Assembly: GCF_003334385.1 (NCBI RefSeq)
Contig: NZ_QOWN01000003.1
Direction: 5' to 3' (one strand)
Source: Escherichia coli
GTDB lineage: Bacteria; Pseudomonadota; Gammaproteobacteria; Enterobacterales; Enterobacteriaceae
DNA: 64,000 nt
Part shown: one piece after another, positions 50,101 to 53,100 of the stretch
How the letters are laid out: each line of letters opens with the position of its first letter
Numbering within the stretch: the stretch's first letter is position 1
Made by a program: the position numbers

Positions 50101-53100
50101 GACATGAAGCGAAAAACCATGAAAATTCGCTCGGGATCTATGAGTTATCCTGGCATCAGGCTATGCAGCGACTGCCGCGTAACCGCTGTCTGGCGACCGG
50201 ATATTCCTGCCGTAGCCAGGTAAAACGGGTTGAAGGCACGGGGGTACGCCATCCTGTGCAGGCTTTACTGGAGATTATTAAATGATATGGAAACGGAAAA
50301 TCACCCTGGAAGCACTGAATGCTATGGGTGAAGGAAACATGGTGGGGTTCCTGGATATTCGCTTTGAACATATTGGTGATGACACCCTTGAAGCGACAAT
50401 GCCAGTAGACTCGCGGACAAAGCAGCCTTTCGGGTTGCTGCATGGAGGAGCATCCGTGGTACTGGCCGAAAGTATCGGTTCCGTTGCCGGTTATTTATGT
50501 ACCGAAGGTGAGCAAAAAGTGGTTGGTCTGGAAATCAATGCTAACCACGTCCGCTCGGCACGAGAAGGGCGGGTGCGCGGCGTATGCAAACCGTTGCATC
50601 TCGGTTCGCGTCACCAGGTCTGGCAGATTGAAATCTTCGATGAGAAAGGGCGTTTGTGCTGTTCGTCACGATTGACGACCGCCATTTTGTGACGTTGTCA
50701 CCAGAAAAGTGTGACGCATATTGCTTTTGGTCATTATCTGCACAGTAAACGGTGGTATACTGTGCAGGTCTTGTCTAAAAGCGAGGATGCTATGTCTACT
50801 CAACTTGATCCCACCCAGCTGGCCATTGAATTTTTACGCCGTGACCAGAGCAATCTTTCACCTGCCCAATATCTCAAACGTCTGAAACAACTAGAACTTG
50901 AATTTGCTGACCTGCTTACTCTCTCTTCTGCTGAATTAAAAGAAGAAATCTACTTTGCCTGGCGTCTGGGCGTGCATTGATCCTGACTTAATGCCGCAAG
51001 TTCGCCAAATCGACCTGGATTAACCTCCGTCCAGGTTCGATGACCTTCTTAATACTGCTTATCTACCGCCTGATATTGTTCAAAAATAATACTAATCGCA
51101 GTTTGTGTTAAAACGGCGGGTTAGCTTTATGAGATTATTCTTATCGCCCCTTCAAGAGCTAAGCCACTGAGAGTGCCGGAGATAAGCGCCGGATGGGGTA
51201 GAAACCCTTAAGCCTGTGTCGCACAGACTTAAGGGTTTTCTTATTTCTGAACGCTGCACTTTTTTACCTATCTCTTAAATAGTCATTTTCAATACAACTT
51301 TTTCTTTTTCATCACAGCCTTAATGCTCCTTAGATAATAACCATTATCTAACAATGAGATACCTAATTCTTAGCGTGCCTGTTAACCCACACATCAGGGT
51401 CTATGCTTATTAAAAGCAGGCAAAAAGCATGTTTTACGGTAAAGCCCCTGCGTTTGCTGGGTTGAACTGATAATCATTATCACTAACATGCTGTTATACG
51501 CTGAAAGCGATGAAGTGAGGTAAATCGATGGACATGCATTCAGGAACCTTTAACCCACAAGATTTCGCCTGGCAAGGCTTAACGCTGACACCCGCAGCGG
51601 CGATACACATCCGTGAGCTGGTGGCAAAGCAGCCGGGTATGGTCGGCGTGCGCTTAGGCGTGAAGCAAACGGGCTGCGCGGGCTTTGGCTATGTGCTCGA
51701 CAGTGTTAGCGAGCCGGACAAAGACGATCTGCTGTTTGAACACGACGGCGCGAAGCTGTTTGTCCCGCTGCAAGCGATGCCGTTTATTGATGGCACGGAA
51801 GTCGATTTCGTTCGTGAAGGACTTAATCAGATATTCAAATTTCACAACCCTAAAGCCCAGAATGAATGTGGCTGTGGCGAAAGCTTTGGGGTATAGGCGG
51901 TACTATGTCTCGTAATACTGAAGCAACTGACGATGTCAAAACCTGGACCGGCGGCCCGCTGAATTATAAAGAAGGATTCTTCACCCAGTTAGCCACCGAT
52001 GAGCTGGCAAAGGGGATAAACGAAGAGGTGGTGCGCGCAATTTCGGCGAAGCGTAATGAGCCGGAGTGGATGCTGGAGTTTCGTCTAAACGCCTATCGCG
52101 CATGGCTGGAGATGGAAGAACCGCACTGGTTGAAAGCGCACTACGACAAGCTGAATTATCAGGATTACAGCTACTACTCAGCACCATCGTGCGGTAATTG
52201 TGACGACACTTGCGCGTCTGAACCTGGCGCGGTGCAGCAAACTGGCGCGAACGCCTTTTTAAGTAAAGAGGTGGAGGCGGCGTTTGAGCAGTTGGGCGTT
52301 CCCGTGCGGGAAGGCAAAGAGGTGGCGGTGGATGCCATTTTCGACTCAGTTTCGGTTGCCACTACTTATCGCGAAAAACTGGCGGAGCAGGGAATTATTT
52401 TCTGTTCCTTTGGTGAGGCGATCCACGATCACCCGGAACTGGTGCGTAAATATCTCGGCACCGTGGTGCCGGGGAATGACAACTTCTTTGCCGCGCTTAA
52501 TGCGGCGGTAGCCTCTGACGGTACGTTTATTTATGTGCCTAAAGGCGTGCGCTGCCCGATGGAACTTTCCACCTATTTTCGCATTAACGCAGAAAAAACC
52601 GGGCAGTTTGAGCGCACCATTCTGGTGGCCGACGAAGACAGCTACGTCAGCTACATTGAAGGCTGTTCCGCTCCGGTGCGTGACAGCTATCAGTTACACG
52701 CGGCAGTGGTGGAAGTCATCATCCATAAAAACGCCGAGGTGAAATATTCCACGGTACAAAACTGGTTTCCTGGCGATAACAACACCGGCGGTATTCTCAA
52801 CTTCGTCACCAAGCGTGCTTTGTGCGAAGGCGAAAACAGCAAAATGTCATGGACGCAATCAGAAACCGGGTCAGCGATTACGTGGAAATATCCCAGCTGC
52901 ATTTTGCGCGGCGATAACTCCATTGGTGAGTTTTACTCAGTGGCGCTGACCAGCGGTCATCAGCAAGCGGATACCGGCACCAAGATGATCCACATCGGTA
53001 AAAACACCAAATCGACCATTATCTCGAAAGGGATCTCTGCCGGACATAGTCAGAACAGTTATCGCGGCTTAGTGAAAATCATGCCGACGGCAACCAATGC

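Follow-up and report, generated by a model that had tools for sequence, protein, structure and literature searches.

The stretch of Escherichia coli DNA analysed here (64 kb, hereafter the window) contains, between ydiH and sufA, a spacer at positions 50981-51527 that poses a question: does it specify a small transcript of its own and, if so, which one, with what ends, and in what relation to the genes on either side? A first-pass annotation of the window had delimited this spacer and suggested that it gives rise to an independent small transcript consistent with the small RNA (sRNA) RydB. The limits were borne out, ydiH ending at 50980 and sufA starting at 51528, and the small transcript is RydB, the product of an already catalogued gene beside the known suf promoter. 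Taken as a whole, the spacer very probably consists of two known and separate units, a free-standing rydB sRNA gene and then the suf promoter, a reading that accounts jointly for a transcription start, a terminator and a matured core. The elements of the first unit are as follows.

51083-51112, + strand: conserved upstream blocks AATAATAC (near -60) and GCAGTTTGTGTTAAA (a TTGnnA-like hexamer), from alignments covering three bacterial families
51130-51138, + strand: predicted extended -10 element TGAGATTAT (TG, one base, GAnnAT), from conservation
51146-51206, + strand: mature RydB core of 61 nucleotides (nt), from the Rfam model RF00118, the Term-seq 3' end and the RNA-seq 5' end; its 3' tail is UAGAAACC
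51201-51248, + strand: rydB intrinsic terminator, a hairpin at 51201-51239 with a U-rich tail to 51248, overlapping the last 6 nt of mature RydB

Identity of the small transcript

The Rfam search for which the first-pass annotation had called returned RydB: RF00118 (rydB) matches 51146-51206 on the + strand with 81.6 bits (E 9e-18; curated gathering threshold 50 bits), the alignment covering all 61 model positions. Positions 50314-52114 of the window are 100% identical to the reverse strand of 1763800-1765600 in E. coli K-12 MG1655 (NC_000913.3), coordinates being converted as window position = 51528 + (1764386 - MG1655 position), and the RefSeq non-coding RNA rydB of MG1655 (b4430) accordingly maps to 51134-51201 on the suf strand. 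The gene is therefore the known one, identical in sequence, matched along the full model and in the same genomic position, and the proposal of an independent transcript is further upheld by the RNA-seq species of about 104 nt described below. There is no difference in kind from annotated RydB; what differs is the ends, 51134-51201 in RefSeq against about 51146 to 51206 here (51248 for the primary transcript). None of the RefSeq E. coli genomes sampled has an annotated feature covering rydB.

Two other candidates were considered for this position. Neither a tRNA-like gene nor any other Rfam family matched in place of RydB, and a 13-residue open reading frame (ORF) starting at the ATG at 51129 is put out of frame by a 1-nt insertion or deletion (TATCGCCCC against TAT-GCCCC) in Salmonella and several Citrobacter.

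Conservation of sequence is restricted to a 55-nt core, which is almost invariant, while the sequence 3' of its closing helix varies or is replaced altogether. That helix, P1 (51146-51150 paired with 51195-51199), has compensatory changes in three of its five pairs, and 96.9% of its cells in the orthologue alignment are paired. Leclercia and Silvania have GCUCC/GGAGC, and Pseudenterobacter AUCCC/GGGAU, in place of GCCCC/GGGGY. The interior helices P2 and P3 of the Rfam model are uninformative for covariation, since all their columns are invariant save for one unpaired cell.

Promoter and 5' end

The rydB promoter is predicted, from conservation, to be of the extended -10 type with a start at about G51146. 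No change is seen in the T and G of the extension or at hexamer positions 5 (A) and 6 (T), hardly any is seen in the A at position 2, and the middle varies; the whole TG-n-GAnnAT element lies 7-8 nt upstream of the G of GCCCC and is kept in three families. One class of phage copies (see below) has another -10, TAAATT, at -12 to -7 from the same G, which gives independent support for the start at G51146. A published RNA-seq table, whose coordinates we calibrated on RprA, places the rydB 5' end at about 51144.

Further upstream, a TTGnnA(AA) block (51103-51112) and a CTAATAGT-like block near -60 are kept in chromosomal, plasmid and phage copies alike. The former is 22 nt upstream of the -10 hexamer, too distant for a normal -35.

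Other placements of the promoter fared less well. TATGAG is rejected as the -10 because Rahnella, P. stewartii, C. werkmanii and C. braakii lack its second A, an essential base, and the RefSeq 5' end at 51134 is unlikely as a start: it falls inside the conserved -10, and its own -10 region (51113-51127) is not conserved. The Cappable-seq supplement has no entry at the rydB position, and a promoter and terminator consensus scan called neither the rydB promoter nor its terminator. Both omissions are taken to be a limit of the scan, the terminator probably being missed on account of the single A.C mismatch in its stem.

Terminator and mature 3' end

The hairpin that follows the core is the rydB terminator, in agreement with the earlier placing of a strong terminator at 51203-51246, far from any ORF stop. 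Its stem (51201-51218 paired with 51222-51239) has 18 pairs, with one A.C mismatch, and a predicted free energy of -22 kcal/mol (z-score -5.2; 0 of 200 shuffled sequences as stable). After it comes TTTTCTTATTTCT, reaching 51248, and the tail UUUUCUUAUUUCU has 10 U in 13. Changes on both sides are seen in 13 of the 18 pairs, and 93.8% of cells are paired compared with 28-55% in shifted controls. A hairpin of 17-21 pairs lies 0-3 nt after P1 in 26/26 orthologues, and four taxa have an unrelated stem sequence there. The published RNA-seq table has RydB species of 104 nt, reaching to about 51248 where the U-tract ends, and of 64 nt. It is the presence of the hairpin in all orthologues, its covariation and the 104-nt species reaching the end of the U-tract that, together, indicate that it works as the terminator of rydB.

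The Term-seq data of Adams 2021 (supplementary file 1) give a different 3' end, at MG1655 position 1764708, which corresponds to window position 51206. No other 3' end is called there between MG1655 positions 1764500 and 1764999, and none near the U-tract. The discrete transcript that had been expected to end at 51246 is therefore seen in RNA-seq, as the 104-nt species to about 51248, and is not seen in Term-seq, where the only end is at 51206. This end falls six base pairs inside the stem, on its 5' arm, and coincides exactly with the last position of the Rfam model. The RydB end scores 2.17M and 4.14M in two listings (the file holds three rydB rows), figures on a level with those for tmRNA (ssrA; 2.2M and 0.9M) and CsrB (1.2M and 3.9M); the same table has 0.39M and 0.46M for 6S RNA (ssrS) and 0.18M and 0.08M for lpp. 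The coordinate convention was checked on the lpp terminator. The original Northern reportedly gave a size of about 60 nt, which agrees with the short form.

Since the main 3' end lies inside the stem, the terminator is apparently lost post-transcriptionally. On the simplest reading, RydB is made as a primary transcript of about 104 nt, is then stripped of the terminator and accumulates as the 61-nt core, so that the ends are fixed at about G51146 (5', predicted), 51206 (mature 3') and about 51248 (primary 3'). A stem of this strength should block 3' exonucleases and an internal cut is therefore needed. The favoured candidate, which we would give about an even chance, is a double cut of the RNase III type with a 2-nt overhang, at 51206|51207 and 51235|51236. 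These cuts would enclose two base pairs, one being C-G in 26/26 orthologues and the other C-G or G-C in 26/26, even where the stem has been replaced; they fit the in vivo RNase III rule given by Altuvia 2018.

The sequence of events would then be as follows. RNA polymerase would start at about G51146, directed by the extended -10 promoter at 51130-51138, transcribe the almost invariant core closed by its 5-bp helix, and stop at the 18-bp hairpin and U-tract (51201-51248), yielding the primary transcript of about 104 nt. The terminator would be cut off post-transcriptionally, leaving the 61-nt core to 51206 to accumulate. The hairpin would also shield the suf control region, a few tens of bases downstream, from the strong rydB promoter.

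Several observations weigh against one or other part of this account. The RefSeq 5' end, 51134, disagrees with the predicted start at about 51146. Rfam and RNAalifold draw the interior pairing of RydB differently, and the core alone folds no better than shuffled sequences (z-score about 0). U-tracts are weak in two Citrobacter strains. The copies in phages and Pantoea have a linker and then a short ordinary terminator, which bears on the RNase III step in particular: a long stem of the RNase III type is not general to the RydB family. Finally, Term-seq favours short, ligatable RNAs and may under-count a full-length RNA whose 3' end lies beside a strong stem.

This last point bears on the alternative that the full-length RNA of about 104 nt is the functional RydB, the end at 51206 representing a decay intermediate or over-representation in the libraries. 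The rydB of Salmonella is listed as 105 nt, which sits well with the 104-nt species listed for E. coli, and most base-pairing sRNAs keep their terminator. The alternative is nevertheless unlikely: 51206 is the sole end called in the region, with very high scores in both listings, the 64-nt form comes from a separate RNA-seq table, the Rfam model matches the short form, and only the core is conserved, the sequence beyond P1 being free to vary or be replaced.

Returning to the matured core, the fact that it is invariant yet thermodynamically unremarkable speaks for a partner that recognises the sequence itself. That the same core is found across hosts and phages suggests, on comparative grounds, contact with a conserved cellular partner.

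Distribution of rydB in bacteria

The genomic surroundings of rydB were compared in a sample of 80 sufA loci from reference genomes of Enterobacteriaceae, 25 of which have rydB. In seven Citrobacter loci about 2 kb separate ydiH from rydB, which is still found about 290 bp from sufA; the insert contains genes for a Vmh-family metallo-beta-lactamase (MBL)-fold hydrolase and a LysR regulator (L007 685-2537). Salmonella and three other Citrobacter have their insertion on the sufA side of rydB instead. The Salmonella insert (L020 1228-2574) carries a convergent gene of the dicarboxylate/amino-acid:cation symporter family whose stop lies beside the rydB hairpin, which may there terminate transcription in both directions. 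Leclercia and Silvania have rydB directly after menI, without ydiH.

In 20 other genera the Rfam model gave no rydB match at up to 3 kb from sufA, which does not imply that these genomes lack the gene: K. pneumoniae carries it elsewhere. There a full-scoring rydB follows patD (L083 2518-2680), with about 90 nt of extra structured sequence before the terminator. Pantoea has the gene on a plasmid of about 500 kb (L082 2520-2615), with a 15-nt linker and a short terminator, and Rahnella has full-scoring copies on large plasmids, outside the suf region. Two layouts are thus seen: a long stem abutting the core in Escherichia, Citrobacter and Salmonella, and a linker of 8-90 nt followed by an ordinary terminator in Klebsiella, Pantoea, Rahnella and the phages.

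Copies in prophages

An exact search of IMG/VR for two invariant segments of the core yielded 43 contigs (L089-L131). RF00118 matched 13/13 of the viral contigs tested, at 76-82 bits and over the full model length, and the phage copies have the same promoter architecture as the E. coli gene. In 6/6 viral contigs annotated with PHROG the copy is on the same strand as the holin-endolysin-spanin genes and 130-960 nt upstream of them. A gene for a Q-like antiterminator lies upstream in five of these six, none being identified in L098. The same layout from Q to the lysis genes is present in two annotated Rahnella prophages (L087 14003-14056; L088 about 6003-6056), and the prophages bearing RydB include four different Q families. 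Taken together, the prophage copies between Q and the lysis genes score 73-82 bits. No match to rydB was found among the isolated phage genomes of INPHARED, and E. coli genomes have the chromosomal copy only.

The Q-to-lysis region of lambdoid phages often carries tRNA or toxin genes. Other RNA genes accompany the RydB copies here too: STnc100 (RF02076) lies upstream in phage contigs (L116 4591-4770, L119 1078-1257, L106 2320-2499 and L098 4653-4835), in L116 between Q and the copy, and in L125 (4415-4567) two tRNA genes lie between Q and the copy. Since STnc100 or tRNA genes intervene in this way in several contigs, the copy is a separate cassette and not necessarily the late leader itself.

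A possible explanation, which we put forward tentatively, is that the promoter, RNA and terminator of RydB form one self-contained cassette, which is carried by lambdoid prophages as well and stands there, downstream of Q, as the final element ahead of the lysis genes, the chromosomal copy of E. coli, Salmonella and Citrobacter being a domesticated one and the core acting in trans on a conserved host component in lysogens. The reverse direction, capture of a host rydB by phages, is also possible. The E. coli locus has no phage genes nearby, and so is not itself a Q-to-lysis cassette. The RydB literature that we searched contained no paper linking RydB to phages.

The nearest parallels by description are the lambda 6S RNA and StxS, the latter a short transcript of the always-active late promoter of Shiga toxin (Stx) phages that is processed to a stable sRNA acting on rpoS. 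As with these RNAs of the PR'-tR' region, RydB has a promoter that appears strong and needs no induction, its transcription stops early and the product is trimmed to a shorter, stable form, its relatives in prophages lie in the late region between Q and the lysis genes, and the sole phenotype quoted for RydB likewise concerns rpoS. There are also differences. StxS binds Hfq, whereas RydB is reported to be Hfq-independent; active StxS is a processed 3' fragment, presumably with the terminator, whereas RydB keeps the 5' part; and StxS raises rpoS expression where RydB is reported to lower it. In addition, E. coli rydB is without phage neighbours and several of the phage copies need not be a PR' leader.

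Alternative origins of the conserved RNA

A structured, conserved RNA directly before a terminator is the usual layout of a leader, and the next genes are on the same strand both in E. coli (suf) and in the phages (lysis). The core and hairpin might therefore be a cis-acting leader of the downstream operon, working as an attenuator, as a riboswitch or, like HK022 put, as an antiterminator RNA. This is very unlikely. A convergent gene comes next in Salmonella, Klebsiella, Pantoea and R. sikkimica, where a leader would have no target in cis; core and terminator are separated by anything from 0 to about 90 nt, and one terminator sequence can stand in for another; and suf has its own promoter some 250 nt further on. 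As to the phages, a constitutive antiterminator ahead of the lysis genes would kill lysogens, and most of the phages examined have a Q gene.

The other neighbour to be considered is ydiH, with the hairpin that follows it.

50792-50980, + strand: ydiH coding sequence, 62 amino acids, from the RefSeq annotation mapped onto the window and the ORF; upstream neighbour, outside the rydB unit
51009-51041, + strand: hairpin 3' of ydiH; predicted free energy -16.5 kcal/mol, z-score -3.97, 1 of 200 shuffled sequences as good; no U-run after it

The first-pass annotation had noted a stem-loop at 51011-51040, and it is indeed present, with the slightly wider limits given here. It is kept only in Escherichia and is probably a weak or partial 3' structure of ydiH. 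The same annotation had named, as what would undo its proposal, the possibility that the terminator simply ends a long 3' untranslated region (UTR) of ydiH, from which RydB would be cut. In Escherichia and Salmonella rydB does lie next to ydiH and in the same orientation, and the E. coli hairpin after ydiH, lacking a U-run, could permit read-through into rydB. Comparative genomics leaves this reading most improbable and we reject it, because synteny between ydiH and rydB is broken in the seven Citrobacter loci, because Leclercia, Silvania, Klebsiella, Pantoea, Rahnella and phages have rydB with no ydiH beside it, the copies of K. pneumoniae, Pantoea and Rahnella being outside the suf region, and because ydiH has a canonical terminator of its own in Citrobacter and Leclercia; moreover, the conserved promoter block precedes the core everywhere. 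rydB is an independent gene, not the ydiH 3' UTR. Like CpxQ and SdhX, sRNAs derived from 3' UTRs, it lies downstream of a protein gene on the same strand; unlike them it has its own conserved promoter and no tie to ydiH, and its terminator is not retained.

The label of REP-like motif (repetitive extragenic palindromic) given earlier to 51176-51200 did not survive, although the sequence itself (CCGGAGATAAGCGCCGGATGGGGTA) is present: within RydB it comprises hairpin P3 together with the 3' side of P1. That the GCCGGAGATAAGCGCCGGATG stretch should be a REP element, or a degenerate relative with a role at the DNA level, can be set aside despite the short words GCCGGAT and ATAAG common to it and to the REP consensus and a REP-like palindrome, judged by eye, 3' of Salmonella ydiH (GCCGGATAAGGCG...CGCCATCCGGC): the motif is single-copy in 5419/5426 complete E. 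coli genomes (median one place per genome) where many dispersed copies would be expected, it shows no variation in phages or among three bacterial families, unlike REPs, it forms only a 5-bp hairpin inside a transcribed RNA, and RepRanger, which makes no REP call, labels rydB 'RIT' (a terminator class).

The suf promoter

The second unit of the spacer is the suf promoter, with a Fur box overlapping the core promoter.

51469-51481, + strand: Fur-box core GATAATCATTATC, an exact match; binding is from established knowledge
51528-51896, + strand: sufA, first gene of sufABCDSE, from the RefSeq annotation mapped onto the window and the ORF

The exact Fur-box core had been picked out beforehand at these coordinates, and we found it to be both unique and positionally conserved. 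It is the only exact match in the 64 kb (with up to two mismatches there are 10 matches against 1.5 expected), and an exact core lies at the same distance from sufA in 44/80 orthologous loci, from many genera. Measured against the 19-bp consensus GATAATGATAATCATTATC, the site agrees at 13/13 positions of the 3' core and 15/19 overall. Control of suf by Fur, IscR, OxyR and integration host factor (IHF) is well established. The OxyR site we take to be about 200-240 bp upstream of the suf start, i.e. just after the rydB terminator. Published papers treat Fur, IscR, OxyR and IHF together with sufABCDSE.

Two symmetrical sequences were also seen upstream of sufA. A perfect palindrome at 51330-51351 (TTAGATAAT-N4-ATTATCTAA) is found, among 81 loci, only in E. 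coli and one close Escherichia relative, and so is probably not a conserved site. An 11-nt inverted repeat, AAAAGCATGTT at 51423-51433 and AACATGCTGTT at 51485-51495, brackets the Fur box and core suf promoter.

Elsewhere in the window Rfam matched RprA (45435-45542, - strand, 118.5 bits), a phenylalanine leader (16638-16762, + strand, 75 bits) and STnc540 (20603-20761, + strand, 67.4 bits). YdiH had no match among the PHROG families.

Implications for RydB function

RydB was reportedly first described in 2001. Over-expression of RydB lowers rpoS expression, according to authors citing the original work. A 2024 preprint describes RydB as being without known targets or transcription factors, and a preprint reports phenotypes for a rydB deletion mutant. 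RydB is listed as Hfq-independent, with only weak Hfq enrichment in Salmonella. It is reported to be SoxR/SoxS-dependent in the paraquat response and, in Salmonella, to be repressed by ppGpp, where it is listed together with SsrA and SsrS.

As for its maturation, RydB resembles the stable RNAs that are stripped of their terminator (RNase P RNA, 4.5S RNA, tmRNA and 6S RNA) in having a mature 3' end upstream of the transcription stop and a very high Term-seq signal, in the same range as those of tmRNA and 6S RNA, with which it was compared. In those RNAs the 3' cut falls in a single-stranded spacer, whereas the RydB end is inside a stem. They also have known protein partners and functions, and RydB has none.

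A practical consequence concerns the mutant. A rydB deletion that takes the hairpin with it would let the strong promoter run into the suf control region, and published deletion phenotypes such as peroxide sensitivity may therefore be confounded.

As regards the locus itself, the analysis confirms annotation rather than adding to it. The details that are new (the corrected rydB ends, the mature form without terminator and with very high signal, and the prophage copies) are offered as leads, not results. Corrected ends and an abundant RNA that lacks its terminator matter for cloning, for deleting and for target prediction, while a Term-seq signal in the housekeeping range and the copies between Q and the lysis genes of prophages provide concrete handles on the function of RydB.

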